From a virus (taxonomy: Duplodnaviria > Heunggongvirae > Uroviricota > Caudoviricetes): a stretch of 38,067 nt of DNA. Within the stretch, counting starts at the first letter, position 1. Every line of letters begins with the position of its first letter. The stretch lies in the IMG/VR virus record IMGVR_UViG_2541047915_000012. One strand, written 5' to 3'. The notes beneath the pieces were generated by a model. That model had not been told where the DNA came from and did not search any database. It saw only the letters and a program-made list of their open reading frames with translations. Positions 1 to 38,067 of this stretch are shown piece by piece. The position numbers and the translations under genes are program-made.

Positions 1-97
1 AGTCTTGAGTCTTGAGTCTTGAGTCTTGAGTCTTGAGTCTTGAGTCTTGAGTCTTGAGTCTTGAGTCTTGAGTCTTGAGTCTTGAGTCTTGAGTCTT
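1..97 (-). repeat. Tandem heptanucleotide repeat tract (AAGACTC on the minus/coding strand); 13 full copies plus a partial copy cut by the window edge
   Basis: Plus strand reads GAGTCTT x13 (7-97) with 6 nt of a further unit at 1-6; all copies perfect; lies inside the 5' coding end of the minus-strand ORF starting at 102. Confidence 0.97.
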
Positions 98-102
98 AAC
101 AT
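1..102 (-). CDS. neuO: 5' end of a neuO-like phase-variable O-acetyltransferase gene (partial; continues beyond window start)
   Basis: Minus-strand ATG at 102..100 with AGGA upstream; ATG-TTA followed by the repeats translates to MLRLKTQDSRLKTQDS...; repeat unit and position downstream of an endosialidase-like tailspike match the described neuO locus of K1 prophage CUS-3; gene body not in window. Confidence 0.55.
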   Translation of the reverse strand, partial: MLRLKTQDSRLKTQDSRLKTQDSRLKTQDSRLKT

Positions 103-255
103 ATTAGTATCCTACGTTATTTTACCACTAGTTACTTTTCTTGTCATTAAAAAGCATTTAAATTTTTATATTTAATTTCGTTGACGTCAATGTTTTTTGC
201 CAATGTACTTACTTCTTTATGTGATCAGTTCATATTTTTGACGCCAACGAAACAT

Positions 256-3201
256 TTAGTGCTTCCCTTCTATTAAGTCTAACCTAGCTTTTATTCTTTC
301 TATTTCTCTGCGCTGCCATGCTGCCTCGATATAGAATAAGAGATCAGGTCTGACCCCCCATCTAGATCCTGCTGGCGTTATTTCAACGCGCTCAATGATG
401 TCTTCCATTACCATCACTGGATTATCATCCTCATCAACAATGATGCTCCCGTCATTATCAGTCAGCGGCATTTCCCTTTGGCCAGTAATGACGTCATCAT
501 ATACTGCGGGATAATCGTCATAGCAAAGAAAGGCATAGCGGCATGTTGTGCTTTCTTCTTCCATGAGTCCGTGAGAAATAAGAACATCACGAAGTTGCTG
601 CGCGATTACACCATGATGTATCCTCGCCCCTTCTTCCCCCTTTATAGCGACAGCGTTCAGCCATTTATAAGCGATATACCTGACGTCACCCCAGGCATCC
701 AGCAATGTTTCGTCAGGAGAGACCGGCTCTGTCTTTAATGTTCCGTCACTGGTAACCACAGGATTGGAGCCAAGATAAACTATCGAGAACCTGTTTCCCG
801 GACCACCAAGAGCATTTACATTATCAAGATAAGGTTTAACATCTCCGTTCTCAAAAAGATGTTCGAGTGCGTTATATACCGCGCGACGTGGAGTACTGCT
901 TCTGGAACCATGCAACGTTATCATTGCACCATCTGCTGAAGACGTTGTTTCACCGCCGCTAACGATTAATCTCTGAGCGGTAACATCATCAGACGGTACT
1001 TTCTTCGCAATAATGGCGTAATTACCCTCAAGTTTGACTTCCGCGCGAACTTGTCCTGATGTACCTGCATGGACAGTCAGTGACTGGACGGCAACATCAT
1101 CTGTGAAATCAACGGGTACAGGAACCGTCCTCACGCCTGACGTCGACATAAAAGTAGGAAGCGTTCTGTTAGGAGTGGCTCCGTAGACAAAATCCCTTGA
1201 AACAAATTCTTCCTGTTTAATTTTCACCCTGAAACAATACAAATCAGCCGGGTGACCATCGTGAACATAAGGATATTTTCTGTTGTTATCCCCTATGCTC
1301 CATGGGTTTAGAAAGTCTTCCCCACCGAAAATGTAGTACAGCCAGTTGTCTTTGATACAAACTGAACCAACACCAACCGCAGAGTTAACTATTCCGCCCT
1401 GATAAATCTGATCAGTAACATTAACCCACTCTACATTATCCAGACTCCACTCATTGACGTTAACTCTGGTCATAAATGTTCTTGGATAGTTTCCTGCATA
1501 ACGGTTATCAGGTTCTCCTCCTTCCCACTCACCAAATGCGCGCTCACTGCCAAAAATAATCAGCTCATCGCCAACTTTGGCAAAAGGAAGGTTTGAGTGA
1601 TGAACATTATTTGGGAAGCGAAGAGAATTCCATGATGTACCTAAATCAGAGCTTCTGTGCAATGAACTACCGGGTTGAGTACTTAATGTCCCCCTGGTCG
1701 TCAGATACAGAATGCCATCATAATATTTTACACATGGCTCAGATGCATTCGCCTCATATTCTGCAGGTATGCGTCTGCGAACAAAGCTACCAGGAGAACC
1801 GAAAGCATCAGAGAAATAGAGTATCCCAAGCTCGCGTGGACCAATATCACCATTATGGTAGCCAACAGCAAAACTGTTATCGCTAATCGTCGCAAAACTG
1901 TGAATCTCAGTAACAGGAGTGCTTCCGTCAACAAAAGAAGGAATAGTTCCAAGACTGGTTTTTCTCCATGGTGACGAGTGAAATGATGTACCAAAACTCC
2001 AGTATCTACCCTCGTTATTCTGATCCACATCCTGGGTATTTTGCGTCGTAACTGTAAAAGTATTTTTATCAATAACAGTAGTCACCGTCATATTCCCGGT
2101 AACACCTGTAACACCAGAGTTTGAGAAGTTGACAAAATCACCAGCAAATAATCCGTGATCAGTAATGCGAATATAAGCGACTTGCTGATTTGCTGCTTTC
2201 GTTATACCACCATAAACGCGAAGGCTGCGACTCATTGGGCGATCCCACAACTCTGCAACCTGCAGTTTATTTCCGCTCACGGTCCGCGTCTCAATTACAG
2301 CAAAAAGGCGATTTCTGACAACCCCCATACTCATGCAGTGATAGTTAACTGTGGGATAGTTTTCATGTAAATCTGTAAGCCATTCCGGCGTTGTCCAGGT
2401 CTTCCCGTCATCTCCTGAGCGAACCCATGCAACATGGAGGTTATTTACACCATGGCGGTCTCCAGCCATAAAAGGCGCATAGATGACATTGTCATATACA
2501 AACGTTTTATCCTGCGTCCAGGCGTTGTACCACGGTGTATCTGTAATTTTAAATAACTCTCCCTGGATAAAATCTTCAGAAACATAAAAAAGAGGCTGAC
2601 CCGGTATTCTCTCAAATAAAAAACGAGCATTTTTAAATCGACTGACATCTGGAAGAGTTGATACTTTAAAAGTAAGCCCTCGCCCATCTATCTTTTCACC
2701 ACCTGTTGCAACAGAAAGTAATTCTGATAGAGCTGATGTATCATCATGAACACCATCACCAATAGCCCCCCAACCTCTTACATCATAACTGTCTCTCCAT
2801 CTTGCTATCTGAAGTTTTGGGTATTTATTCGCTCCATCTGGGTCTTCTAATTGCTGCCGTAGTTGATCAGGATCATACTTCAGCACATTCTGGAAATAGA
2901 ACTGCTGTACGCCATACGCATCGTACACAGCCATAGAATGGCCTTGCACAGTTACGAACTTGGCAATCCGTCCGTTATATACAGGGTAACCAGCAGCGTT
3001 AATGATGATTGGTTGCGAAACAGGAACGTGAGAGCCGTCTTCGTTCTCTACATAAACCTGAATCCGGTTTTCAGGATTTACCGGGTCAGTGTCAATTTTA
3101 CCGATATAAATTTTGCCATTGGCTACGGCTTTAAAAGAACGCGCCATAGTGAAGAGTTGCGAAGGCATCGATACAATCACATTGGCTGTAATGTCTGTCA
3201 T
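256..3201 (-). CDS. Tailspike protein, probable endo-N-acetylneuraminidase (endosialidase) with P22-type head-binding N-terminus and C-terminal intramolecular chaperone domain
   Basis: 981-aa ORF, GGAG RBS before ATG at 3201; N-terminal ~110 aa resemble P22 gp9 head-binding domain (MTDITANV...[19 protein letters not shown]...VTVQGHSMA); two sialidase Asp-box motifs SGDDGKTW and SSDLGTSW; C-terminal ~150 aa resemble autocleaving chaperone domains of endosialidases and tail fibres. Confidence 0.75.
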
Positions 3202-3258
3202 TTAATTTGCTCCAGATGCAAAGAATCGCCGCAGCATGGCCACGGTGAATTTTGGGCA

Positions 3259-3281
3259 TAAAAAAACCCAGCCGAAGCTGG
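3259..3281 (-). terminator. Rho-independent terminator between ant and the tailspike gene
   Basis: Minus strand reads CCCAGC-TTCG-GCTGGG followed by TTTTTTT. Confidence 0.6.
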
Positions 3282-3301
3282 GTCGTTGCGTTGGTTATCT
3301 G

Positions 3302-4204
3302 TCAGTAATTATGTACTGAAGGAGGTAATTCTTTATTCTTAAGTCTCATCCATGCGGAAAGATTCGTTGGTCCGTCTGGCTCATTGATATCAACATCTCG
3401 TGTGTGATTGATTAAAACGTCTCTCGCCATATCGATAATACGGGAGAACTCATAACCGCAGTCATGACATCTGCCGGAATAGTTCGATTGAATTTGTTTT
3501 AGCGCCGGATACAGTTCGCGGAATAATGCCTGTGAGCGGTTGGCATAATCCCATAGCCATACAAGGCTGTTTGCTTCTTTTGCAGAAAGCTCGTTGGTTT
3601 TCTTCTCTTGTTTGCCGATGAACTCACCTTCAAGCACTACCCTGTGGATGTACTCTACTGCTTGTGGTATCTGAGATGCATCAAGCTCTTCAATACTTTC
3701 CACATTGAAACGCTGATGAATCATTGCATAAGCTTCTGGGTACATTAGATGCTTTTTGCTGACTAGCATATTTACAGCATCACGAAGCGGAGTCCTGTCA
3801 TCAACAGATGTTTTCTTCCGTGCATTTGCTGCCTCTCCCTTTGTCCAGTAGTCATGCAGCACAGTAAAGCATTCTTCCTGGTACTGAATCAGTTTATCGC
3901 GGATGTCAGCACGAACTTTCTCAGGGTTGATGCTGAACAGCCATCCATTTAACTTCTTCAAAGGAAGGCAGAGTAGCTTACGAAGCTTACCATCAGCGGC
4001 AACCATGTTCATATGAACACAGTTGAATTTGCTAATCTGCTTCATGAGTTTTGTTTGCTGCGTTGACCAGCTCATTCCGAGGTTTTCAACGATTGGCTTC
4101 ATCGCAACATATGCAACTCCGGCAGCCATGGCGGTGATAATTTGCTGACCGTTGAATGGCACGTAAGAGGTGTTCACTGCTTCTAAAATTGCTATACTAT
4201 TCAT
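3302..4204 (-). CDS. ant: Antirepressor Ant (P22 immI type)
   Basis: 300 aa from ATG at 4204 ([21 protein letters not shown]...) with GGAG RBS; matches recalled P22 Ant length and N-terminus; tool ORF has a GTG-initiated 22-codon upstream extension judged spurious. Confidence 0.75.
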
Positions 4205-4436
4205 GTTGGTTTTTCTCCACGGATTTACCGACAACCGAAGCCCTGACTGTTCCAGCAGTTGGGGCTTCACTGTTTTGATTTCTTTGCCGCATCAAGCATC
4301 ACTTCTGAAAACGTGCGCTTGCCACTGAATACTCTTTCTCTTCTCAATTTTTCGTTCGTGCCAAATGATTCGCCATGAACAAAATTTGGTCTTAAAATGG
4401 TAATCGCAATCTCTTTGACTACTGCATCCAAGCGAA

Positions 4437-4589
4437 TCACACCGTTACCCCCTCTCTCTTCAGGCTGTCTATCAGGCGCTTGATAACCTCTGAGTTAAAC
4501 GACCTGCACTCTTCCTTTGCCCTGCTACCGATAGCATCCTTTAACGACTGCGGCATCCTTACCAAAATCTTACTTATTTCTTTCTCCAT
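4437..4589 (-). CDS. arc: Arc-like ribbon-helix-helix repressor
   Basis: 50 aa from ATG at 4589 with GGAGGG RBS; ...RSFNSEVIKRLIDSLKREG resembles P22 Arc (...RSVNSEIYQRVMESFKKEG); tool ORF starts at an upstream TTG. Confidence 0.7.
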   Translation of the reverse strand: MEKEISKILVRMPQSLKDAIGSRAKEECRSFNSEVIKRLIDSLKREGVTV

Positions 4590-4703
4590 GTTACCCTCCA
4601 CGCAAACAACTCTTTTCGAATACAAAAGATAGCAAAGTGAGTATATCTAGTCAAAATTTTTTTGCATACACTTTGCTATCAAATTGAATACCAAAGGTGT
4701 TAT
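4590..4703. promoter_or_regulatory. Divergent Pant/Pmnt control region with operator-like inverted repeats
   Basis: Between divergent arc and mnt; minus-strand -35 TTGACT (complement of 4651-4656); perfect 12-bp inverted repeat GATAGCAAAGTG (4628-4639) / CACTTTGCTATC (4669-4680) flanking it. Confidence 0.5.
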
Positions 4704-4952
4704 ATGGCAAAGGGTGTGTCAATTTCTCCAACTACGGTAAGAATCCCTGAATCTTTACGCGAGGCTCTTGCTGTCAGAGCATCAAAAAATGGTCGCTCTG
4801 TTAACTCCGAGATCGTCATGATTTTGCAAGCCGCGATTGATGAAGATAGGTCGCCAAAGTCAGTTGAGTCATTTGCTCAGCAAGAAGCTGATAAATTCAA
4901 AGAGGCGCTACTTGAGACGCTAAAGACCATGTATGCTAAGGATGAAAAATAA
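4704..4952 (+). CDS. mnt: Mnt-like repressor (Arc/MetJ family)
   Basis: 82 aa from ATG at 4704 (AGGTG RBS); ...ASKNGRSVNSEIVMILQAAI... resembles P22 Mnt (...EANGRSMNSELLQIVQDAL). Confidence 0.7.
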   Translation: MAKGVSISPTTVRIPESLREALAVRASKNGRSVNSEIVMILQAAIDEDRSPKSVESFAQQEADKFKEALLETLKTMYAKDEK

Positions 4953-5488
4953 TGCTGCACACAATTCATTTCTTATGCCCTGTTAACACTGCCACTGTTG
5001 GGCAACTTCAGAACCACTGTCTCACCGCATTATCTCAAGGCGCAACTGAATTAAATATCCATATATCAAGTCAGGGAGGGGAAACTGCTGCTGGCTTTAC
5101 TGCGTATAACTTTCTTAAGTCACTCCCTGTTACCGTTAGAACTCACAACATAAGCAATGTTGAATCCATAGCTAATATCGTTTTCCTGGCTGGCTCAGAA
5201 CGTTTCGCAAACCCATTATCAAGATTCCTGTTACATCCTCTATTATGGTGCTTTGCCTCCCCAGCCGCCGACCATGCCAGATTGAGAGAGTACGGGAAAT
5301 GCCTCGATAACGATCTTGATCGCTTCGTTGAGACGTTCAATATCGACATCGGAACCCATATTAGGTGGGCATCCCTGATAGCAGACTCGACCATTTTGGA
5401 TGCTAACAAGGCTCTTGAGCATGGCATAATTAATTCCATAAAAACTGCAAGGCTGGCATCCAATCAGGCAAACTGGTGGGTTGTTTGA
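4952..5488 (+). CDS. ClpP-like serine peptidase (Clp/crotonase fold), function unknown
   Basis: 178 aa; start overlaps mnt stop (TAATG). Alignable by eye to E. coli ClpP: IHISSQGG vs YINSPGG, ...VESIANIVFLAG vs ...AASMGAFLLTAG, SRFLLHP vs SRVMIHQP, ALEHGIINSI vs AVEYGLVDSI; candidate Ser/His/Asp triad present. Confidence 0.55.
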   Translation: MLHTIHFLCPVNTATVGQLQNHCLTALSQGATELNIHISSQGGETAAGFTAYNFLKSLPVTVRTHNISNVESIANIVFLAGSERFANPLSRFLLHPLLWCFASPAADHARLREYGKCLDNDLDRFVETFNIDIGTHIRWASLIADSTILDANKALEHGIINSIKTARLASNQANWWVV

Positions 5489-5510
5489 TGGGTAAATCAT
5501 GATTACTCCT

Positions 5511-5536
5511 TATAAAAAACCCACCTGACGGTGGGT
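5511..5536 (-). terminator. Rho-independent terminator immediately after the YafO-like gene (bidirectional position between convergent genes)
   Basis: Minus strand: TAA-ACCCACC-GTCA-GGTGGGT-TTTTTAT; perfect 7-bp stem, 4-nt loop, T-run. Confidence 0.75.
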
Positions 5537-5986
5537 TTAGTCAAACATAGTGTTTCTAAAGTCTCTCGCATACCCTGCTAACACTCTCATTCTATTATGA
5601 TTGTTAGCAGACATGTGAGCTACAGGATGAAAAAGAGCAATCAATGAATACCTGTTCTCATCAAAAAGATTTTGTGCATAAACGAGAGCGGTATTGGATG
5701 TTTTATGCCACTGCAACTTTTGCGGTGTGCTGATATCTGTGCCATTTTTTATTGGCTCAAATTTATTTTCACCAATTGCTAAATGAAGGTGCATAAGGCC
5801 TGCATCTTCAATATCAGGAGGTCGATGATAAGAGGTGTCTCTGCCAAAATAGCTGGGCAACGTTCCCGTAGACTTGTAGATGATAAAATCATCTACAAGT
5901 GTTTGTTTTAAATCAGGAAACTCAACAAAAACCGGGGAGAAAAAATAGTCAAAACTATCCTGATTATATTCCACGGTTACTTGCAT
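5537..5986 (-). CDS. YafO-family toxin-like protein (putative ribosome-dependent mRNA interferase)
   Basis: 149 aa, ATG at 5986 with GAGGT RBS overlapping upstream stop. Blocks shared with recalled E. coli YafO: DFIIYKSTGTLPSYFGRD vs DFISYKRDGVLPDIFGRD; MHLHLA vs AHIHLA; LIALFHPVAH...NNHNRM vs LIAILKPEPH...DNNQMH; C-terminal DFR vs AFR. Confidence 0.55.
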   Translation of the reverse strand: MQVTVEYNQDSFDYFFSPVFVEFPDLKQTLVDDFIIYKSTGTLPSYFGRDTSYHRPPDIEDAGLMHLHLAIGENKFEPIKNGTDISTPQKLQWHKTSNTALVYAQNLFDENRYSLIALFHPVAHMSANNHNRMRVLAGYARDFRNTMFD

Positions 5987-5994
5987 GTTTTACC

Positions 5995-6561
5995 TCAGTG
6001 GAAGTTACCAGAGTGAAACACACGAGTCCCGTGCTCAGCAAGCGCACGCAAACCAGCCATATCTACGGAACTATCAAAAACAACCGGAACACATGAGCGT
6101 TGTTTAATAAGACTATTCAGGTTGGTTACGGCAGATCTGGCATCAGCAACAACGATATAGATATCTCTTGCGATCTCTTTAAAATCAGCAGAAGCTTCTT
6201 TGAATACCGATTTCATTGCCCCTTCAAGTCCTCTCAATTGATGCTCTATCAATCGAGACTTTTCTGGTTCAATGATAGACAACACATTGTCTACATTCTC
6301 ATCGGTAGCGTTTGCAAGAACACGATAAGCGTATTTCAGCATTCGAGACAATTCTTTAATCGAAGACACCGCCTCATGAAGCTCATCATTAGCCCGTTCA
6401 CTGCTGAATGAGGATTGATGGTAAGCGTGCTGAACGTTATCAGTAACAACCACCTCACAACTGAACGCAGAAGCTTGCTGTAATAGCAAACCTATTGCGA
6501 CTCCAGCTTTGGCAGCGTTCAAGCTAAACATTTCATCAATCCCATTAGTCTCATTGCTCAT
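5995..6561 (-). CDS. Hypothetical protein, upstream operon partner of the YafO-like gene (not recognisably YafN/RelB/Phd-like)
   Basis: 188 aa from ATG at 6561 with perfect AAGGAGG RBS 5 nt upstream; stop is 8 nt before the YafO-like ATG; tool ORF begins at an upstream TTG. Confidence 0.6.
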   Translation of the reverse strand: MSNETNGIDEMFSLNAAKAGVAIGLLLQQASAFSCEVVVTDNVQHAYHQSSFSSERANDELHEAVSSIKELSRMLKYAYRVLANATDENVDNVLSIIEPEKSRLIEHQLRGLEGAMKSVFKEASADFKEIARDIYIVVADARSAVTNLNSLIKQRSCVPVVFDSSVDMAGLRALAEHGTRVFHSGNFH

Positions 6562-6736
6562 ACAAACCTCCTTCTTATCGGAGATTATCAATAGCTATGC
6601 ATCCATTGAATACACGCTATGCGCAATAAGTTTACGTCACGTGATATCATTATGCAACCACCGTTCTATCACCGACTAACTTTACTCCCACTCCTATACA
6701 TCATCTGGTATCCTGCGCAAAACTAAGGAGGTTGGT

Positions 6737-7087
6737 GTGAATGCTCAGTCTGTCATCATGGTTTTCCTTGGGCTGATTGTCGCAAAACTATATCCAGACT
6801 GGTGGAAAGGGGCATTAGCTACTGTCGCCATCTATTTGCTTTTATCCATCGTTAAGCGATCACTCGCTGAGACCGTAAATCAAGCAAAACGTTTCTCATT
6901 TAAGAGTTTAATAAACTATGTTACTGGGCTTATTTTTTGCCTTTCAATTCTGATCGCTTCGGCTTTTTTGCCCGTATCAATAGCTAATTTTTTTGGCGCA
7001 CCATATGAGGTAGGTTATCTATTCTCTGTTTCCTGTCTTGCCATTGCTCTTCTTTACCTGTGGACGAGATCAAAGAATAAAAATTAG
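6737..7087 (+). CDS. Small integral membrane protein (about 4 predicted TM helices), candidate superinfection-exclusion-type protein
   Basis: 116 aa, GTG start preceded by AAGGAGG; hydrophobic stretches VIMVFLGLIVAKLY, ALATVAIYLLLSIV, LIFCLSILIASAFLPVSIANFF, VGYLFSVSCLAIALLYLW; divergent from the 5995-6561 operon. Confidence 0.55.
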   Translation: MNAQSVIMVFLGLIVAKLYPDWWKGALATVAIYLLLSIVKRSLAETVNQAKRFSFKSLINYVTGLIFCLSILIASAFLPVSIANFFGAPYEVGYLFSVSCLAIALLYLWTRSKNKN

Positions 7088-7104
7088 CCATCCGTGGCTG
7101 CCAG

Positions 7105-9121
7105 TTATTGAGCTTCTTTTTGTGATGCCTGTGCGACTCTGGTGAGCGATTGTGTGACCGTACTGATCGCTCTGTCATATGCTGTGCTACCTTTTGGCGT
7201 ATTTGCCAGACGTAACAAGGCATTTCGTATAACAGGGCTTTCGTATGCCTTCGCAGCTCCTCCTACGACACCAGCAGCAGGAACAACAAACGCAGCCGTT
7301 TTTAGCATCCCCGCTAATACTGCTGCGTTTATGATGCCACCACCAACTAACAATCCATAAAGCTGCTGACCATTTAAGTTTTGAACGTTCGCTTTTGCCG
7401 CGTGTCTTGTATCGTTGAGGTATTTAATAACGCCGTCCAGTTCCTTTCCATGTACGCCTTTAAAGAAAGTTGCTGATTGCTTCCTGTTCCGGTGTAACGC
7501 ATTAATAAACTTTTCAACACTAATATTTCCAGACGGATCAGTCGCCTTATCTACAGCATTCTGAACTATGGCTGCTCGTGCGTTTTGCCTACCATTGTCA
7601 TCCAGAAGCCTGTAAAGCTGAGAACGTTCTGATGGGTTTTGGCTAAAAACGAGTTTTGTTACATCCTCAGGTGTAGCCTTGCCGCTGGCTATTGCCTTTT
7701 GAACGCGCGTTCTTCCCATCATGTCATTGAATCTAGCCCATGAGCGATCAACCCTAGACATATTGGCAGCTTCTTCTGAGCCTAGTTTTTGGGATACTGC
7801 TTTTTTCATATCCGCTGTATATGCCTTGTAGACAATATCGCTGGCTTTCTGGAGCGTGTCTTTATCAACAGTCTCGTTTGAATTCATGAACCGCTTTCGA
7901 AGGTCAGTTCTGTTTTCTCTCGCCAGACGCAGGTCATTGGGTCCGCTGGTGATATCGTCTTTAAATTGCTGCAAGACTTTTACCGCGGCTCTATCCTGAG
8001 ATTTGCCCGGGCGGCTTAACACGGCAATCTGATTGTCGATAGCTTTTACCGTGTTTGAGAGATCGACAGGGGTATCCCCCATAGCGTCAATTATGCGGTT
8101 ATATCGCTTTCCTGCTGCCTCAATGAATTTTTGTTGCCCTTTAGTCGCAGATTCATAAAGCTGTTTATCAGAAATGCCACCCAGACCATCGCTAAATGTT
8201 CTGACTAAATTTTCTCGTGCTTGTTGTTGATTCAGCCGATTCTTACCGGTTCCAAAAAAAAGGAACTCTTTCGCCTAATGTCTGAGCCTGACTCTGCATA
8301 AAGGTTTTATCTTTCAGCGTGTCACTGGTCATTAACGGCAGGTTTCTTTCCGACGCAAAATCGACAGCAGCCTTTGCTTCCGGTGACATCTCACCGCGAA
8401 CAGCCCTGGAAACCGCACTAACTGTATTTTCCAGCCCCTTGCCAACACCACCAATGCCAGCAGAAATTACCGTTTGTGCAGGATCAATATCTTCTCCGCC
8501 AGCAAGGCTGGTGCCACCCTGTAGTGCTAAATCTGTAGCAGCTGATTTCCCTATGGCACCAAGCACCGTTCCAGCCCTGCCCGCTGGTGTGAACGCTAAC
8601 GCATTAGCAAGAAACGAAGTCAGGTCTTGCGGTGATAAACCTGGCTTGTTCAGGGCATAATCACCGGATGGCAGGGAAACGATAGTGTTACCCTTCTCAT
8701 CCTGCCTTAATTTCGCCCCCATACTCTGAAGAATCTTTTCCTGAGACGCGTCGGAGCCGAAAAGTTGAGACCATCCAGCCTTCAGGGCATCCATGCTTAG
8801 TGAGTTCAACTCAGGGGCAGCCCCAACATTTTGCAGTCTCTCCATTTCTGGTGTCATTCGGCTTTCACCGGTAACGGCATCGCGCATTGCAGCACCTAAA
8901 ACAGCCCCTTGCTCAGCAGAGCGATCTAGTCCTTCCTTCTGCTGAGTGGCAAGCTGTGCATATCCTGATGCAAGTGAGTTGTCTGCTGGCGATTGCTGAA
9001 CACCTTGTTGTGTTGGCGCTGACTGACCAGCAAAATACTCATCAATGGCGGACCCAATATCTTCCGTGCTCGTACCATCAGGAAAGGTAAATGTCTTACC
9101 ATTTGCAGTTACTTTCATCAT
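7105..9121 (-). pseudogene. Ejection protein gp16 homolog with reading frame interrupted at an A8/T8 homopolymer
   Basis: Two same-strand ORFs (8243..9121, 292 aa; 7105..8082, 325 aa) where P22 has one gene 16; the downstream ORF frame stays open upstream through the homopolymer at 8254-8261, so a 1-nt change would fuse them (~670 aa). Confidence 0.5.
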
Positions 9122-10569
9122 TCCACCGTAAATTGAATGCCTGATTTTGACGTGTAGCTACCTCCTGCTGATTGCTGAGTAGCTGGCTGTTGCCTTGATG
9201 ATTTCTTCCCGCCATTACCAACATTAACGTTATATTGCTGGTTGTAATTGTCGGTATATTGCTGAATGTCGCGCATTGATTGTTGCAGCGCTTCAGGACT
9301 TGAGAAATCAGGCTTTGGCATACCCTGAAAATACCTATTGGCCTCTGCTTCGGTGTTGATGCCAGATGCCCCCATATCTCGGGCTGCTGCAATCCCCTGA
9401 TTTTGCATTTTGCCCATGATTCGCTGTGCAGCGTTGTATAGCCTCCTCTCCTCAACACCAGATGCCCTGCTACGAATATCTGCACCAAGAGCAAAAGAAC
9501 CTGAAGAACCTGTAATACCTGTCATGAAGCCAAGATCGTCAATTGATGCGCCAGAAATTGCATCAAGATCTTTCTTCATTTCGTAATTCTGTGCATTAGC
9601 TGCCGATGTAGCCGGAGCAGCAATAGAACTGGCGGGGACGCGAATCATATTGCCCTCGTTGTCTATTCCTTCGTAGAACGCATTAGCACCAGCGCCGTGA
9701 AGCTTCCTACCAACCGTTACCGTTCTGCCATCTGCCAGTTGCACAACATTCTCCCCGCCAGCATCAGGACGACCTCGAACACGAAGATATGTCTTTTGTT
9801 GCTCTGGAGACAGGCTGTTGAAATATTGATATTCTTTAACAGATGCAGGAACAGCACCTCCAGCAGTGCGCAGGGAGTTTTCACGGCTAACAGCAATGCT
9901 TTGCGCCTTTAAACCTTCCCCAGCTTTATTGCTGCGAATCGTCTCTGCCAACTTGCCACGCTCAATATCCCGACCTTCCATTTGATCTTTGATATCGAAA
10001 TACTTCTCATGACCGAGAGAAAATAGTGCCAGATTACCTGCGAAGTGCTGGAAGCCCTGCGGGTCATTAACCTGCATTTCCGCAATAGTTTCTGGAGGGA
10101 TACCTAAACGACGCATCTCCTTTTCGTTATCCATCATGAACCTGCCAAATGCACCCGGACCAAGCGACGAAGCGACCTGAGCCTTAAGCGCCAGATTGCC
10201 AAAATCATCCCGCTGGGCGTCATCGACATACCCCATGCCTTTACGGACTTCCTCAAACTCTTCGGGGAATGCTGTAATAAGATTACGCATCTGCTCCCTG
10301 TCGCCGGACGCATAAGCATCCGCATAACCTTTCTGGAATGCCGCTTTACGCTCCTGCTTTTGCTGCTGCTTATAAATATCAGCAACTCCAGCCAGACCAC
10401 GAAGACCTGTCAGAGCAACGTTATTTGCACCTGATCGAGCCAGTTCATTGTTTTCGCGGATCAGACCAAGCGTTGCGTTAATGTCGCTTGCCTTTGGCGC
10501 ATTCTCATTTTGCGTACCGATGCCAGCCAGAAACCCACCAGAATTAATACCCTGTTGCCACGTAGCCAT
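9118..10569 (-). CDS. Ejection protein (P22 gp20-like)
   Basis: 483 aa; position between gp7-like and gp16-like genes and size match P22 gene 20. Confidence 0.6.
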
Positions 10570-21923: not shown

Positions 21924-22001
21924 ATACGGCAGTTCTCAGGCTCAGCTTTCTGAAAGACTCGGGATTGTTACGCGCTGCGATGCGCGGTTTACTGCAGATA
22001 T

Positions 22002-22026
22002 AAAAAAGCCCCGCGAATGCGAGGCT
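22002..22026 (-). terminator. Rho-independent terminator downstream of the lysis cassette
   Basis: Minus strand GCCTCGC-ATTC-GCGGGGC followed by TTTTTTAT. Confidence 0.6.
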
Positions 22027-22199
22027 AAATCCTGGTATTTGTAATGACTGGCTCTTATCTCAACGCAGCCCCTTACCGCGCGCCAGATGCTCAATATCAA
22101 GCATCAGCAATGAGATGTTTAATCTGGATTCACTCCAGAAGTGATCACCACCCTGTCTACAGAGCCAGATGTGAAGGATGATGAGTAAAATTATCGCTA

Positions 22200-22637
22200 T
22201 CATCGAAGGCATTGCGTCCTGATGTACTCCTGCAGGTAGTTAACCTGCGCGGTTATCCTGTCGATTCCACTTCGGAGACGGTAATAATTGAGTTCAGCAT
22301 CTGCTGTAAGTCTTGGGTTTTCTCCATCGCCCATGCTGCTGGCTCCGGTCGTTGACTTTGCACAGGTGGCGGCGACTTGCAGGCGCTTACGCCCAGCAGA
22401 AACATCAGCACGGAGACTTTCGATAGTCGCGTTAGCATCAGCAAGCTCCTTTGTGTATCTTGCGTCGAGTTCTGCTACATCACGTTGACGCTTCCGCATA
22501 TCAGCGATGATGGATGTGGCTTTATCGCGCTGCTCTTTGTAGGCGATTGCATTATCACGGTAATGATTAACAGCCCATGACAGGCAGACGATGATGCAAA
22601 TAATCAGAGCGGAGATAATCGCGGTGACTCTGCTCAT
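22200..22637 (-). CDS. Rz: Spanin, inner-membrane subunit (Rz)
   Basis: 145 aa; N-terminus [31 protein letters not shown] nearly identical to recalled lambda Rz; start overlaps R stop. Confidence 0.8.
22253..22444 (-). CDS. Rz1: Spanin, outer-membrane lipoprotein subunit (Rz1), embedded in Rz in a different frame
   Basis: 63-aa ORF wholly inside Rz; hydrophobic leader ending in lipobox-like VSAC, then proline-rich [13 protein letters not shown]; true start may be an internal Met. Confidence 0.55.
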
Positions 22638-23110
22638 ACCTCAATCTCTCTGACCGTTCCGCCAGCCTCTTTGAATTTTGCAATCAGGTTGTCAGCCTTA
22701 TGCTCGAACTGACCATAACCAGCGCCCGGCAGTGAAGCCCAGATATTGCTGCAACGGTCGATTGCCTGACGAATATCACCGCGGTCAATCATCGGTAAAG
22801 CGCCACGCTCTTTAATCTGCTGCAATGCCACAGCGTCCTGACTTTTCGGAGAGAAGTCTTTCAGACCAAGCTGCTTACGGTAGGCATCCCACCAACGGGA
22901 AAGAAGCTGGTAGCGTCCGGCGGCTGTTGATTTGAGTTTTGGGTTTAGCGTGACAAGCTTGCGAGGGTGATCGGAGTAATCAGTAAATAGCTCTCCGCCT
23001 ACAATGACGTCATAACCATGATTTCTGGTTTTCTGCCGTCCGTTATCAGTTCCCTCTGACCACGCCAGCATATCGAGGAACGCCTTACGTTGATTATTGA
23101 TTTCCACCAT
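22634..23110 (-). CDS. R: Endolysin, lambda R-type lytic transglycosylase
   Basis: 158 aa; [51 protein letters not shown]... essentially as recalled for lambda R. Confidence 0.85.
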
Positions 23111-23417
23111 CTTCTACTCCGGCTTTTTTAGCAGCGAAGCGTTTGATAAGCGAACCAATCGAGTCAGTACCGATGTAGCCGATGAACACGCTCGTTATAT
23201 AAGCGAGATTGCTACTTAGTCCGGCGAAGTCGAGAAGGTCACGAATGAACCAGGCGATAATGGCGCACATCGTTGCGTCGATTACTGTTTTTGTAAACGC
23301 ACCGCCATTATATCTGCCGCGAAGGTACGCCATTGCAAACGCAAGGATTGCCCCGATGCCTTGTTCCTTTGCCGCGAGAATGGCGGCTAACAGGTCATGT
23401 TTTTCTGGCATCTTCAT
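23094..23417 (-). CDS. S: Holin, lambda S-type (class I) with dual-start motif
   Basis: 107 aa; begins [41 protein letters not shown]..., Met1-Lys2-Met3 dual start as in lambda S107/S105. Confidence 0.85.
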
Positions 23418-23796
23418 GTCTTACCCCCAATAAGGGGATTTGCTCTATTTAATTAGGAATAAGGTCGATTACTGATAGAACAAATCCAGGCTACTGTGTT
23501 TAGTAATCAGATTTGTTCGTGACCGATATGCACGGGCAAAACGGCATGAGGTTGTTAGCGCAACCTCATGCCACCCGCTTTCACGAAGGTCATGTGTAGA
23601 AGGCCGCAGCATAACTATCACTGATGAATTCAGGATAGCCAGTGGCTACGGCTCAGGTTGGGTTGTGGCGGTCGGTGCTGAACTCCGACTTAATGACGAT
23701 AGGCGTGTACCGACGCCTCGTTTTACTTCCTCCGCTTTCACGGCTTCACCCTAGACCAGCTTTACGAAATCCTCGTAAACCTAACCGCGGCAGATA
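23418..23796 (-). promoter_or_regulatory. Lambda-like late-operon leader upstream of S (sdi stem-loop, 12-bp hairpin), cut at its upstream end by IS911
   Basis: Minus strand ends ...AATCCCCTTATTGGGGGTAAGAC-ATGAAGATG (CCCC/GGGG stem before the dual start); perfect 12-bp stem GGCATGAGGTTG/CAACCTCATGCC at 23543-23572 followed by GTTTTG; overall sequence closely resembles the lambda leader as recalled. Confidence 0.6.
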
Positions 23797-23868
23797 TGAA
23801 GTGGTTTACTGAATTTGGCCACCTGAACAGAGGTGATATGCTCACCTCAGAACAACACAGGTGCCATA

Positions 23869-25016
<1,148 letters not shown>

Positions 25017-25204
25017 CTCGGTGGCCAGTTTTTGTTGACCACTTCAATATGACCGGCACGGTGTGCCATATCACGGACCGGCGGGTGTCTCGTTCACCTG
25101 ATTAACGCATCAGCCTGCGTATTCACCACAACGATAAGAGTACTGCGCGGCACCTTTCACCAATTCCGCGAGGTCTGCGGGTTCAATGCTCTTACCTGTT
25201 GTGC

Positions 25205-25249
25205 AAACAAAAAAGCCACCGTTGCAACTTAAGAGTCACTAACGGCAGC
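25205..25249 (-). terminator. Rho-independent terminator just downstream of Q (tR'-like)
   Basis: Minus strand GCTGCCGTT-(18 nt)-AACGGTGGC stem with two G-U pairs, followed by TTTTTTGTTT; directly precedes the lambda-like leader motif GCACAACAGGTAAGAGCATTGA. Confidence 0.55.
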
Positions 25250-25259
25250 TTACCTTCTA

Positions 25260-25289
25260 ATTATGGCTAAATGGATAATTGCATGTCAA
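25260..25289 (-). promoter_or_regulatory. Candidate late promoter (pR'-like) overlapping the Q stop codon
   Basis: Minus strand TTGACA (25289..25284), 18-bp spacer, CATAAT (25265..25260); the -35 lies in the last Q codons; terminator hairpin begins only a few nt after the predicted start, so assignment is tentative. Confidence 0.45.
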
Positions 25290-25785
25290 GGTTTTTAACA
25301 GCAACATGCTTAACTTTCTCAACACGTTTACGCATTTTGAAAGCATTTTGCATTGGCTGGTATAAAACAAATAATGACGCTTTCAGGATGTCGTCAATTT
25401 CGTTTCTACAGGTTGCCAGTGAAGGTTTTCTCCATCCCTCGCCACCACGTCCACACATCTTGCGTGGCTTTGCAGTCGCGTGATAGTAGGATGCAATTGC
25501 TCGCTTAGATGAACCATGAGCGTAGTAGCTGAGGAGGATGCCAAAGGCTTTCTTGTCAATGTACATGACGGAATCAACGACCTGAGAAATCAACATTCCA
25601 TCATCATCATTACACATTGGCCTTGTCATAATTCTTCCCGGCTCTACGCTCTCCATGAACTTCGCTATTACGCTGCTCATGCGCTTTTCCAGACGACCTG
25701 AATAAACCCATGCGCCCCACAGTTCAAGCCAGCCATTCAGCCACTCGTGCTGCTCTTTGGTGAGGTTTAGTTCTCTTATGCTCAT
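25267..25785 (-). CDS. Late-gene antiterminator Q-family protein (not lambda-Q type)
   Basis: 172 aa; motif WGAW...CNDDDG resembles Q-like antiterminators of cryptic lambdoid prophages; directly upstream of candidate late promoter and lysis genes; start overlaps ninH stop. Confidence 0.6.
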   Translation of the reverse strand: MSIRELNLTKEQHEWLNGWLELWGAWVYSGRLEKRMSSVIAKFMESVEPGRIMTRPMCNDDDGMLISQVVDSVMYIDKKAFGILLSYYAHGSSKRAIASYYHATAKPRKMCGRGGEGWRKPSLATCRNEIDDILKASLFVLYQPMQNAFKMRKRVEKVKHVAVKNLDMQLSI

Positions 25786-25970
25786 CGTCTTCCCCTCTTG
25801 CCTTGTTTGACCATCAGGACGCCGTTAACTATTACGTGACGCTCGCCTTTGCTGTCTCGGTTGTACTTGAGCACTGTTCCTCTTGCGCAGGAAAGCATCC
25901 TCGCCACTTCGGTCTGATTGCCTCGTGTCTGGATAAGAAGCTCTGGTATCGTTTGAATTGTGGCGTTCAT
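25782..25970 (-). CDS. ninH: NinH-like small DNA-binding protein
   Basis: 62 aa; ...TIPELLIQTRGNQTEVARMLSCARGTVLKY...HVIVNGVLMV resembles lambda NinH (...TIPDMLVE.YGNQTEVARRLKCSRGTVRKY...HAIVNDVLMV). Confidence 0.7.
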   Translation of the reverse strand: MNATIQTIPELLIQTRGNQTEVARMLSCARGTVLKYNRDSKGERHVIVNGVLMVKQGKRGRR

Positions 25971-26329
25971 GCGTTCTCCAGTTCGGTGATTTTTATTCCA
26001 AGCCGTCCGCCTGGTACTTTCACACCACGAATTACGCGAATGTCATCGAATTGCTCGTCGTCTTCCGCAAATCCGGCGTGGATAAGGGAGTCGAGTAAAC
26101 CTTTCAGGATGTTGTCGAGGTCGCGGCGGCGGGAGTCTGGAACGTCTGCGATGACTTTGATACGGAGTCGTGATTTGGTGAAAATGTCTAACTTGAGTTG
26201 GCGGATGATTTGCTGAACGTCTTTTCGGTATTTCTGGCCTTTATCGCTTATGTAATATTGGCTTCCCCGTCTTCGCCAGTAGGTATTCACCGACGGCGGG
26301 TATGGAAGCACAAACTGATATTCGTTCAT
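25967..26329 (-). CDS. rusA: RusA-family Holliday junction resolvase
   Basis: 120 aa; motifs LPYPPSVN.YWR, DVPDSRRRDLDN, GGRL.I.ITE match RusA as recalled. Confidence 0.7.
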   Translation of the reverse strand: MNEYQFVLPYPPSVNTYWRRRGSQYYISDKGQKYRKDVQQIIRQLKLDIFTKSRLRIKVIADVPDSRRRDLDNILKGLLDSLIHAGFAEDDEQFDDIRVIRGVKVPGGRLGIKITELENA

Positions 26330-26616
26330 GACTTAATCTTCCCCTCCCTCAGCAGTATCGCCTGCGTTCTGATCACGCCTTCGAGGTGGTAAAGTCTGGC
26401 GTCTTTGTTGTCGAGATTATGGGTGCGTCGGTCGATTTCATCGTGACACGCACTACAAGCCCATGCACCGATCAGGTCGTCAGGCTTCATTCCCGTTCCG
26501 CAAATTCCAGCCATCCGGTAATGTGCCAGAACTGTAGTTTCAGGGTTGCCATTGCATACGCCGTAAATACGTACCTGACATTCTCTTCCGCGCGCTTCTT
26601 TGCGTAGGTTAGCCAT
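26326..26616 (-). CDS. YbcO-like protein (DUF1364, cysteine-rich putative nuclease)
   Basis: 96 aa; ARGRECQVRI.GVCNGNPETTVLAH...CSACHDEIDRRTH resembles DLP12 YbcO. Confidence 0.6.
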   Translation of the reverse strand: MANLRKEARGRECQVRIYGVCNGNPETTVLAHYRMAGICGTGMKPDDLIGAWACSACHDEIDRRTHNLDNKDARLYHLEGVIRTQAILLREGKIKS

Positions 26617-27338
26617 TAAGCAGCCTCCCCTGTTACTTTCAGCATTCCGTTATCGAGCAGCTTTCTGGTCAGCCACTGTTGACCACGCCCGGTGATTTTT
26701 GTGGTGAACGATATCTGTATTCCGTGATTTGTGTTGACCGCTGTTTCTTTCACTGTGAAATAGCCGCGATCCATATATTCCTGCATTGGCACATTGCGCC
26801 GGGAACCTGAAGCAATAAGGATTTTGTGATCACGCATCCACGCAAACAGTTTGTTTTGACCAATACCAACAACCTTTGCAAAGTTTCCAATCAAAATTCC
26901 GCTGGCCTCGCCAACGCGATCGGCAAACTCAACTTTAGGTGCGACAATTGCGAGCTGGTTTTCCAGTTGCATTTTCTGCTCAGCAAGATCGGCAGCAAGG
27001 CGCAACGCTTCCGGTAGCGTTTTGGGGATATTAACCGCAGCTTCTTCAAGCTCTCGCCAGCGGTCAACAAGGCGAGCGGTGAACTCTGGCGACAACTGGG
27101 CAACAACGACAATACTGTCTCGCTTACCTTGTTCGCCCTCGAAGACGTAATGCTCGTACTGAACATTGAACCCTAAGTTATTGATTCTTTCGGAAACCTC
27201 AATTTGAGGAAGCCGGATAACACCATTTTTAGCCAGCGTTTCGATGGTACGTTTCACATTGTCATGACGCTTACCAACCAACTCAGCAATTTCAATGCTT
27301 GTCATTTTGATGGCATTGCCATTCATTAACTCATTCAT
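26616..27338 (-). CDS. Phage regulatory/antirepressor protein (Rha-like N-terminal domain plus KilAC-like C-terminal domain)
   Basis: 240 aa; N-terminal motif ELVGKRHDNVKRTIETL typical of Rha-domain proteins; C-terminal region of antirepressor type; in nin region. Confidence 0.5.
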   Translation of the reverse strand: MNELMNGNAIKMTSIEIAELVGKRHDNVKRTIETLAKNGVIRLPQIEVSERINNLGFNVQYEHYVFEGEQGKRDSIVVVAQLSPEFTARLVDRWRELEEAAVNIPKTLPEALRLAADLAEQKMQLENQLAIVAPKVEFADRVGEASGILIGNFAKVVGIGQNKLFAWMRDHKILIASGSRRNVPMQEYMDRGYFTVKETAVNTNHGIQISFTTKITGRGQQWLTRKLLDNGMLKVTGEAA

Positions 27339-27507
27339 CGTCTTCTTCCTCGTACATTGAGCTATTCGGATCGCTCATCAGTTCTGCGCAGCAATCGGAG
27401 CACACGTGAACTTCAAGCACATGCAGCTTCTGACCGCAGTTAGCGCACGTTAATGCCCGCTCGACGCTTTCTTTCTGGTATTGAAGGGATTGGGATGGGC
27501 TAAGCAT
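27331..27507 (-). CDS. ninF: NinF-like small cysteine-rich protein (not in supplied ORF track, <60 aa)
   Basis: 58-aa ORF MLSPSQSLQYQKESVERALTCANCGQKLHVLEVHVCSDCCAELMSDPNSSMYEEEDDE; stop overlaps downstream start, start 5 nt after upstream stop; zinc-ribbon-like Cys pattern. Confidence 0.5.
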   Translation of the reverse strand: MLSPSQSLQYQKESVERALTCANCGQKLHVLEVHVCSDCCAELMSDPNSSMYEEEDDE

Positions 27508-37866: not shown

Positions 37867-38067
37867 ATGCAACACGAACTACAACCTGATTCACTGGTTG
37901 ATTTGAAATTCATCATGGCCGATACTGGCTTCGGTAAAACCTTCATCTATGACCGGATTAAGTCCGGCGACCTGCCAAAAGCCAAAGTTATCCACGGGCG
38001 AGCAAGATGGTTATATCGTGACCATTGTGAATTCAAAAATAAGCTCTTAAGCCGCGCCAATGGGTAA
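37867..38067 (+). CDS. xis: Excisionase / AlpA-family DNA-binding protein
   Basis: 66 aa ending exactly at window end; MADTGFGKTFIYDRIKSGDLPKAKVIHGRARWLYRDHCEF fits the AlpA/Xis winged-helix pattern; expected position next to integrase (beyond window). Confidence 0.6.
   Translation: MQHELQPDSLVDLKFIMADTGFGKTFIYDRIKSGDLPKAKVIHGRARWLYRDHCEFKNKLLSRANG

Follow-up and report, generated by a model that had tools for sequence, protein, structure and literature searches.

An endosialidase tailspike gene of the siaK1 type in a CUS-3-type prophage of Escherichia coli K1

The long open reading frame near one end of this viral DNA, a stretch of 38,067 nucleotides called the window here, raises the question of which protein it encodes, what that protein acts upon, and whether it is still put to use. 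A first-pass annotation, made from the sequence alone, had taken positions 256 to 3201 as the gene of a chimeric tailspike. The gene is real and intact, but it lies on the minus strand, where it forms a single unbroken open reading frame with an ATG start, 981 codons for amino acids and a stop, and with a GGAG Shine-Dalgarno sequence at 3210-3213. The precursor has a computed mass of 109.5 kDa. At the DNA level the gene and siaK1 of phage CUS-3 (CP000711) share 99.0% identity, and the encoded protein matches the CUS-3 tailspike (siaK1/endoNK1; ABQ88383, CAJ29292), which has the same length of 981 amino acids, at 975 of the 981 positions. The CP000711 record describes siaK1 as an "endosialidase tailspike protein" with endo-alpha-sialidase activity under evidence code IDA (PMID 16689790), and this direct-assay evidence concerns a protein 99.4% identical to the one encoded here. 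The enzymatic activity of the CUS-3 protein is thus taken from the database record and the literature; the identity with that protein, the domain architecture and the conservation of key residues were established in the present analysis. We conclude that the gene is almost certainly the endosialidase tailspike gene (siaK1) of a CUS-3-type prophage (P22-like, Lederbergvirus) that lies beside a tRNA-Arg gene in an E. coli K1 strain, and no feature contradicts this identity of the protein. The same tailspike DNA occurs with 100% identity in S88, in APEC O1 and in many other K1 strains, among them several O1:K1:H7 and O2:K1:H7 isolates, and at least 80% of window positions 1-3400 is present in 154 of 5426 complete E. 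coli genomes.

The fusion of a P22 anchor to an endosialidase is already known and is not novel. It was published in 2006, is described with credit to Stummeyer et al. in a review (PMC5380687), and stands as a textbook case of tailspike module swapping. The first-pass annotation had not recognised that the protein was a published and experimentally characterised one.

The N-terminal 113 residues, encoded at 2863..3201 (minus strand), form the P22-type head-binding, or virion-anchoring, domain, and they match PF09008 (Head_binding) over the whole model (1-113/113, E=3.8e-64), which bears out the earlier description of the first ~110 residues as P22 gp9-like. The best solved relative of this domain is Sf6 gp14 (7sg7, 1.5e-66), to which it is nearly identical, followed by P22 gp9 structures with E values of ~1e-50. 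In the solved structures the N-termini of the Sf6 and P22 tailspikes align over residues 1-118 of the present protein. The domain ends at the conserved YDPDQ junction, after which the Sf6 and P22 alignments stop, and the homology to P22 gp9, Sf6 gp14 and the HK620 tailspike likewise extends to YDPDQ (residues 1-113). The bodies of those three tailspikes are right-handed beta-helix O-antigen glycosidases that are not known to have a cleaved chaperone domain, and the P22 protein is labelled endorhamnosidase in its PDB entry. Compared with the present tailspike, their receptor-binding bodies are entirely different catalytic domains (PMC5380687). Between anchor and enzyme lies a linker of 32 residues (114-145; 2767..2862, minus strand) in which no Pfam domain was found. 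It is the sole stretch for which there was no high-scoring solved homologue: residues 113-150 match tailspike 9vvr_A weakly, and solved structures align to the whole protein except residues 119-144.

The differences from CUS-3 are confined to this end of the gene. Relative to the assayed RS218 (CUS-3) protein, the present allele carries six substitutions, all within residues 43-121, so that residues 122-981 are identical and the enzyme proper, residues 146-981, is 100% identical. All 29 nucleotide differences from the CUS-3 siaK1 DNA fall in codons 9-121; the other 2585 nucleotides are unchanged. The breakpoint of recombination between CUS-3 variants coincides with the junction of anchor and enzyme. 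The same endosialidase cassette is also found on a phage of another genus, Escherichia phage vB_EcoP_ZX5 (Uetakevirus), whose tail fibre gene (QTH80017) shows 99.5% DNA identity over nucleotides 522-2914 of the present gene. The ZX5 protein is near-identical from about residue 175 to residue 966, but it differs in having another N-terminal anchor of ~190 residues and another C-terminal tip.

The first-pass annotation had described the body as a sialidase with two Asp-boxes, and this can now be specified as a member of the endosialidase family. Six Pfam domains score above cut-off in all, in the order seen in endoNF of phage K1F and behind a full Head_binding domain. The endosialidase N-terminal extension occupies residues 146-212 (2566..2766, minus strand; PF12218 End_N_terminal, 2.9e-37), and endoNF (1v0e) aligns here from chain residue 2. 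It is followed by the catalytic beta-propeller, which is predicted by homology to the solved structure to be six-bladed, at residues 213-662 (1216..2565, minus strand; PF12217 End_beta_propel, 1.2e-233, model 1-367/367). A beta-barrel is inserted in the propeller at residues 324-406 (1984..2232, minus strand; PF12195 End_beta_barrel, 1.2e-46, full model), and the stalk, or tail-spike, domain covers residues 663-817 (751..1215, minus strand; PF12219 End_tail_spike, 6.7e-78). PF12195, PF12218 and PF12219 are each above cut-off with full-length model coverage. We take the body to belong to phage endosialidase family GH58, and the barrel is presumably a polysialic-acid-binding lectin-like domain, a role that we carry over to residues 324-406 from endoNF.

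The structure prediction that the first-pass annotation had proposed is unnecessary, given the solved structures that align to all but residues 119-144. The crystal structures 1v0e and 3gvl align over residues 145-817 (E=0), and the identity to the K1F enzyme (1v0e, 3gvl, 3gw6) is 62.8% over residues 146-981. The two proteins share the domain order from N-terminal extension to chaperone; the stalk is conserved as well, together with the catalytic residues, the pair of Asp-boxes and, for cleavage, the Ser-Lys dyad and the Arg sensor. The two Asp-boxes that had been named were located at residues 262-269 (SGDDGKTW; 2395..2418, minus strand) and 517-524 (SSDLGTSW; 1630..1653, minus strand), aligned with SGDDGQTW and SRDIGQTW of endoNF; they are the only two matches to S-x-D-x-G-x-x-W in the tailspike, where ~0.008 would be expected by chance for its composition. 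The catalytic and substrate-binding residues of the K1F enzyme are listed in PMC12632334 as H350, R549, E581, R596 and R647. On the minus strand their aligned and identical counterparts are H250 (2452-2454), R456 (1834-1836), E488 (1738-1740), R503 (1693-1695) and R554 (1540-1542), respectively. The present protein differs from endoNF by a 7-residue insertion (FVDGSTP, residues 422-428) and by a chaperone domain whose acidic loop is longer, and its anchor is a P22 head-binding domain where that of endoNF is a T7 tail-fibre-type N-terminus (PMC5380687).

An autocleaving intramolecular chaperone of ~150 residues had also been proposed at the C terminus. The domain is there, but it is longer, at 164 amino acids (residues 818-981; 259..750, minus strand; 18.7 kDa). 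Homology to Peptidase S74 is at the extreme C terminus, immediately after the triple-beta-helix stalk (PF13884 at residues 818-878, 2.8e-10), and the endoNF chaperone construct 3gw6 aligns over residues 698-979 with E=1.8e-93, or 4.4e-69 with the C-terminal 202 residues alone. The Ser-Lys dyad S911/K916 of endoNF and the role of R897 have been described (PMC8326128). S818 (748-750, minus strand), which is aligned with Ala911 of 3gw6 (endoNF S911A), is the predicted scissile and nucleophilic residue, K823 (733-735, minus strand), aligned with K916, is its predicted dyad partner, and R804 of the stalk (790-792, minus strand) corresponds to R897 in the alignments to 1v0e and 3gw6. The mature spike would thus be predicted to consist of residues 1-817, with a mass of 90.8 kDa.

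From homology to endoNF and P22 gp9 we infer how such a protein would work, including autocleavage, trimerisation and use of the tailspike in the present host. The 109.5 kDa precursor would form a trimer. After the stalk has folded correctly, an adjacent chain would supply R804 to aid the S818-K823 dyad in a cut at T817/S818 that frees the 18.7 kDa chaperone. The mature 90.8 kDa trimer would then attach to the P22-type tail through residues 1-113. At infection, alpha-2,8-polysialic acid would be bound by the beta-barrel and the stalk and cut endolytically at the propeller active site (H250, R456, E488, R503 and R554), and the virion would tunnel through the K1 capsule until it reached the outer membrane. 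The same polymer is O-acetylated, in a phase-variable manner, by the product of the adjacent gene, neuO.

The surroundings of the gene agree with those in CUS-3. The order int-neuO-siaK1-ant, with neuO downstream and ant upstream of the tailspike gene, the prophage type and the integration site beside tRNA-Arg are all as in that prophage; S88 has the gene order tRNA-Arg, intS, acyltransferase (neuO), tailspike, ant. On CUS-3, neuO is reported to have the endosialidase gene on one side and int on the other (PMC8653822); the same paper is our source for the neuO mechanism. The link that had been drawn from an adjacent neuO-like gene to K1 polysialic acid holds, although of this polysialic acid O-acetyltransferase contingency gene no more than the first 102 nucleotides lie in the window (1..102, minus strand). 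The window edge cuts the gene, whose ATG is at 100-102 and whose AAGACTC repeat, in 13.9 copies, fills 1-97. In the S88 locus, otherwise identical, the array has 34 heptads, an out-of-frame number; the gene is ON when the number is a multiple of 3. Elsewhere in the window there are genes for P22-type portal, coat, gp4, gp10 and ejection proteins. In the S88 prophage, which is otherwise 99.99% identical, portal, gp4-family, gp10, P22 coat and gp16/gp17-family ejection proteins are annotated at the same coordinates, and by this annotation P22-type tail machine genes are present in the same genome as the tailspike. CP000711 matches about two thirds of the window at 97-99.9% identity; the IS elements differ, as does the segment at 3635-10365 with the immI region and the ejection protein genes, which is of a P22-like lineage other than that in RS218.

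Could the enzyme nonetheless be something other than a K1 endosialidase? A conventional exo-sialidase (GH33, NanH-like) that scavenges sialic acid and has no role in the virion would also carry Asp-boxes, and a weak BNR_2 match was indeed obtained. That match, at 17.4 bits, is below the cut-off of 31.4, and no FRIP motif ([FYW]R[IVL]P) occurs in the 981-residue tailspike; on these two grounds a GH33 identity was rejected. With the full endosialidase-specific domain set joined to a P22 head-binding domain, in a gene that takes the place of the tailspike gene in a P22-like prophage, we regard the chance of an exo-sialidase as vanishingly small. A shift in specificity relative to the K1 endosialidases, for example to the alternating alpha-2,8/2,9 polymer of K92 or to O-acetylated polysialic acid only, might be suspected from the divergence of the protein, which is ~63% identical to endoNF and ~60% identical to endoN92 of phi92, whose host is K92, and from the FVDGSTP insertion. 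This we consider extremely unlikely, as residues 146-981 are those of the CUS-3 enzyme, annotated in its record from direct assay as an endo-alpha-sialidase, and every host with a named serotype is K1. The polysialic acid (K1) capsule, which had been put forward as the target, is supported both by the database identity and by homology to solved structures.

A K1 endosialidase may still be one that its present host never uses, and here the state of the prophage matters. Compared with the S88 prophage, the window carries three IS911/ISEc52-like elements: one in the late-operon leader (23797-25046), one at 28338-29587 where there is no target duplication and 3556 bp are missing, and one inside the N-like gene (31806-33055). 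The 3556-bp loss includes the genes for the replicative helicase and the replication protein (O/P), and an extra A at 8254 splits the gene of a 670-residue gp16-family ejection protein. In the window the prophage around the tailspike thus looks crippled, and the tailspike may therefore never enter infectious particles in the present host. The gene would then be a silent relic, intact and unused in a prophage unable to finish a lytic cycle, and carried along with a neuO that benefits the host. The fact that the same prophage has decayed differently in other strains, the tailspike gene being interrupted by an IS in FY26 and NCTC11151, and AH21I008 having an IS-linked deletion, is in keeping with this. 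On the other side, the tailspike frame has no lesion and is base for base as in apparently complete prophages, the extra A, being part of an A8 run, may reflect an error of sequencing, Q-modified late transcription might pass through the IS, and the missing functions could be supplied by a helper phage. We regard the silent relic as a serious possibility, somewhat short of an even chance; it concerns use in the present host only and is compatible with the CUS-3 identity. A further thought is that the endosialidase gene, intact and always linked to neuO, might be kept by host selection, low-level expression from a crippled prophage serving to trim or reshape the K1 capsule of the bacterium itself, in which case neuO and siaK1 would form a cassette of two capsule-editing genes that persists beyond the phage. 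Relative to CUS-3, there are 0 differences in the 2840 nucleotides that make up the 5' end of neuO and the body of the endosialidase, versus 29 in the first 361 nucleotides of the gene. That pattern is compatible with host selection; recent common descent with recombination at the domain junction accounts for it equally well. We hold such selection to be highly unlikely. The IS-disrupted tailspike alleles of other strains argue against strong host selection.

As a discovery the siaK1 tailspike carries little weight, the chimera being published and the enzyme family having crystal structures. For annotation it is of use in three ways: its presence indicates a K1-capsulated host, an E. coli of the extraintestinal-pathogenic type with a neuO contingency locus; it provides an exact, predicted map of the cleavage site and active site for the present allele; and it contributes two small points on evolution, the breakpoint at the junction of anchor and enzyme and the cassette shared with ZX5. 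The three-IS configuration was sought in complete genomes as well, and no genome of the collection spans 80% or more of window positions 22000-38067 in a single place. Finally, a pattern scan placed a putative terminator-like hairpin at 3265..3284 (minus strand; GACCCAGC-TTCG-GCTGGGTT then T7), in the gap that separates the ant stop (3302) from the start of the tailspike gene.

The tailspike gene is a single long ORF at 256-3201 that begins with an ATG and encodes 981 amino acids; its orientation in the first-pass annotation is corrected here to the minus strand. A Shine-Dalgarno-like GGAG precedes the start codon by 8 nt. The gene shows 99.0% DNA identity to siaK1 of phage CUS-3 (CP000711), a P22-like prophage of E. 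coli K1, and 975 of the 981 residues match the reference protein; it is an allele of CUS-3 siaK1. In the CP000711 record the product is named "endosialidase tailspike protein" and is assigned endo-alpha-sialidase activity under evidence code IDA, citing PMID 16689790. The chimera is already known, the protein having been published and characterized by experiment and structure. The same chimera is described in PMC5380687, where credit is given to Stummeyer et al. 2006; the chimera has its N-terminal domain in common with P22, Sf6, and HK620 and its catalytic domain in common with K1F, whose own anchor is T7-like. Window positions 1-3400 are 100% identical in the chromosomes of E. coli S88, APEC O1, MS7163, and many more strains, several of which carry a K1 label, and at least 80% of this region was found in 154 of 5426 complete genomes.

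Counting only Pfam domains above curated cut-offs, we found six in the tailspike: Head_binding (aa 1-113), End_N_terminal (aa 146-212), End_beta_propel (aa 213-662), an inserted End_beta_barrel (aa 324-406), End_tail_spike (aa 663-817), and Peptidase_S74 (aa 818-878). The proposed P22-type head-binding N terminus was borne out both by its Pfam domain and by alignment of aa 1-118 to the N terminus of Sf6 gp14 (7sg7; E = 1.5e-66) and to P22 gp9 N-terminal structures (E near 1e-50). Both of the Asp-boxes that had been quoted are present, at aa 262-269 and 517-524, with no other such motif in the protein and a chance expectation of about 0.008. The sialidase body stands as a set of endosialidase domains, with the correction that this is an endo-sialidase; an exo-sialidase-type assignment was rejected, the FRIP motif being absent and the BNR_2 match below threshold. 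The C-terminal chaperone domain is likewise present, although at 164 aa rather than the ~150 suggested. The tailspike belongs to three families, those of the endosialidases, of Peptidase S74, and of the P22 head-binding domain, and shows all the defining features of each that sequence can test. Overall, the original observation was confirmed and its interpretation supported.

The entire protein except aa 119-144 aligned to solved structures. In the proposed comparison with endoNF, the endosialidase of phage K1F, the catalytic trimer (1v0e and 3gvl) is matched by aa 145-817 (E = 0), aa 698-979 align with 3gw6, an uncleaved endoNF S911A stalk-plus-chaperone construct, and aa 146-981 show 62.8% identity to K1F endoNF. 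The key catalytic residues of K1F, identified as H350, R549, E581, R596, and R647 in a deep-mutational-scan paper (PMC12632334), have identical counterparts in H250, R456, E488, R503, and R554 of the tailspike. The endoNF autocleavage dyad S911/K916 and folding-sensor R897 (PMC8326128) align with S818, K823, and R804, respectively. In the predicted pathway, the C-terminal domain would help the 109.5-kDa precursor to trimerize, and self-cleavage at T817/S818 would yield a 90.8-kDa mature spike and an 18.7-kDa chaperone fragment; aa 1-113 would dock the spike onto a P22-type tail, and during adsorption the spike would digest the K1 capsule (alpha-2,8-polysialic acid). For the present allele we infer trimerization, cleavage, and activity by homology, activity having been reported for the near-identical CUS-3 protein (CP000711 record).

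What the present analysis adds is a breakpoint at the domain junction and the finding of the same cassette in a second phage genus. Compared with the tailspike gene of CUS-3 from strain RS218, all 29 of 29 nucleotide differences fall within codons 9-121, comprising the head-binding domain and linker (window positions 2841-3201), versus none in the other 2585 nt of the gene (256-2840) and none in the 255 nt downstream; the probability of such clustering is about 4e-27 under an even spread of differences. A further 25 differences occur in 3202-3634, an intergenic and ant stretch. CUS-3 variants thus recombine at the anchor/enzyme junction, the very one from which the chimera arose, and the neuO-endosialidase block is the unit that is conserved. 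The endosialidase cassette recurs in phage vB_EcoP_ZX5, a Uetakevirus (MW722083, 1803-4922), with 99.5% DNA identity over gene nt 522-2914; there it is joined to another N-terminal anchor, of ~190 aa, which points to recent transfer of the module between phage genera. The tailspike linker may itself be a reusable adaptor module, since a solved tail spike of 843 aa, 9vvr_A, has matches both to the linker region, which is an orphan otherwise (aa 113-150, against 9vvr_A residues 213-250; 5.3e-10), and to the stalk-end/chaperone region (aa 786-911).

Window positions 3635-10365, spanning the immI region and an ejection-gene segment, gave no CP000711 match at the megablast level. Within them lie a ClpP-like protein gene (4952-5488, plus strand), a YafO-family toxin-like protein gene (5537-5986, minus strand; 79 bits, short of the cut-off of 153 bits), and a 198-aa ORF (5995-6591, minus strand) that has neither an annotation nor an NCBIfam match. 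This content may be moron or defense cargo. A pattern match places a strong terminator-like hairpin with a run of seven Ts (3265-3284, minus strand) after the stop codon of ant and ahead of the tailspike start; if it acts as a terminator, tailspike expression would need antiterminated read-through. Such read-through is thought to apply to P22 gene 9.

A few structural changes aside, the window matches the S88 prophage at 99.99% identity; it ends 220 bp past attR. An IS3-family element of 1250 bp (IS911/ISEc52-like, with ORFs of 112 and 272 aa) is present in three identical copies, none of which occurs in the S88 prophage. One (23797-25046; 3-bp target duplication ATA) sits in the leader of the late operon, with the Q gene on one side and the holin gene on the other, and another (31806-33055; 3-bp target duplication ATG) is inside an N-like gene. 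The remaining copy (28338-29587) has no target duplication and adjoins a 3556-bp deletion, which has taken out the genes for the replicative helicase and the replication protein. An extra A relative to S88 at 8254, in an A8 run (8246-8254), splits the gene for a P22-gp16-family DNA ejection protein (670 aa) into two minus-strand ORFs (7105-8082 and 8243-9121); this may reflect either a genuine frameshift or a sequencing error in the homopolymer. The prophage is probably non-viable on its own, and we tentatively entertain the reading that the tailspike is in this strain an intact but unused gene.

The neuO-like neighbor is present as claimed, with only its first 102 nt inside the window: the ATG is at 100-102 (minus strand), opening a repeat peptide that begins MLRLKTQDS, and positions 1-97 hold an array, cut by the window edge, of 13.9 repeats of the neuO heptad AAGACTC, here as its reverse complement AGTCTTG. 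The S88 locus, otherwise identical, runs tRNA-Arg, intS, acyltransferase (neuO), tailspike, ant, and its array has 34 heptads (locus L002, 3860-4097). Full-length NeuO arises only from repeat numbers divisible by three (PMC8653822). As 34 is not a multiple of 3 and the S88 reading frame from the neuO ATG ends just past the repeats, S88 neuO is OFF; RefSeq annotates a 111-aa C-terminal "acyltransferase" fragment alone. The proposal that the spike, which cuts the capsule, is functionally linked to a neighbor that modifies it is correct and already in the literature, where neuO sits between the endosialidase gene and int (PMC8653822).

This prophage has decayed independently in other strains. In FY26 (locus L006, 756-5014) and NCTC11151, an IS3-family element with a programmed frameshift lies inside the tailspike gene, which survives as two pseudogene halves. 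AH21I008 (locus L007, 2370-4329) shows another IS-linked deletion: one ISEc52 copy is flanked by the holin gene and by a replication protein gene that is truncated, and the annotation lacks the Q-to-helicase genes that S88 has.
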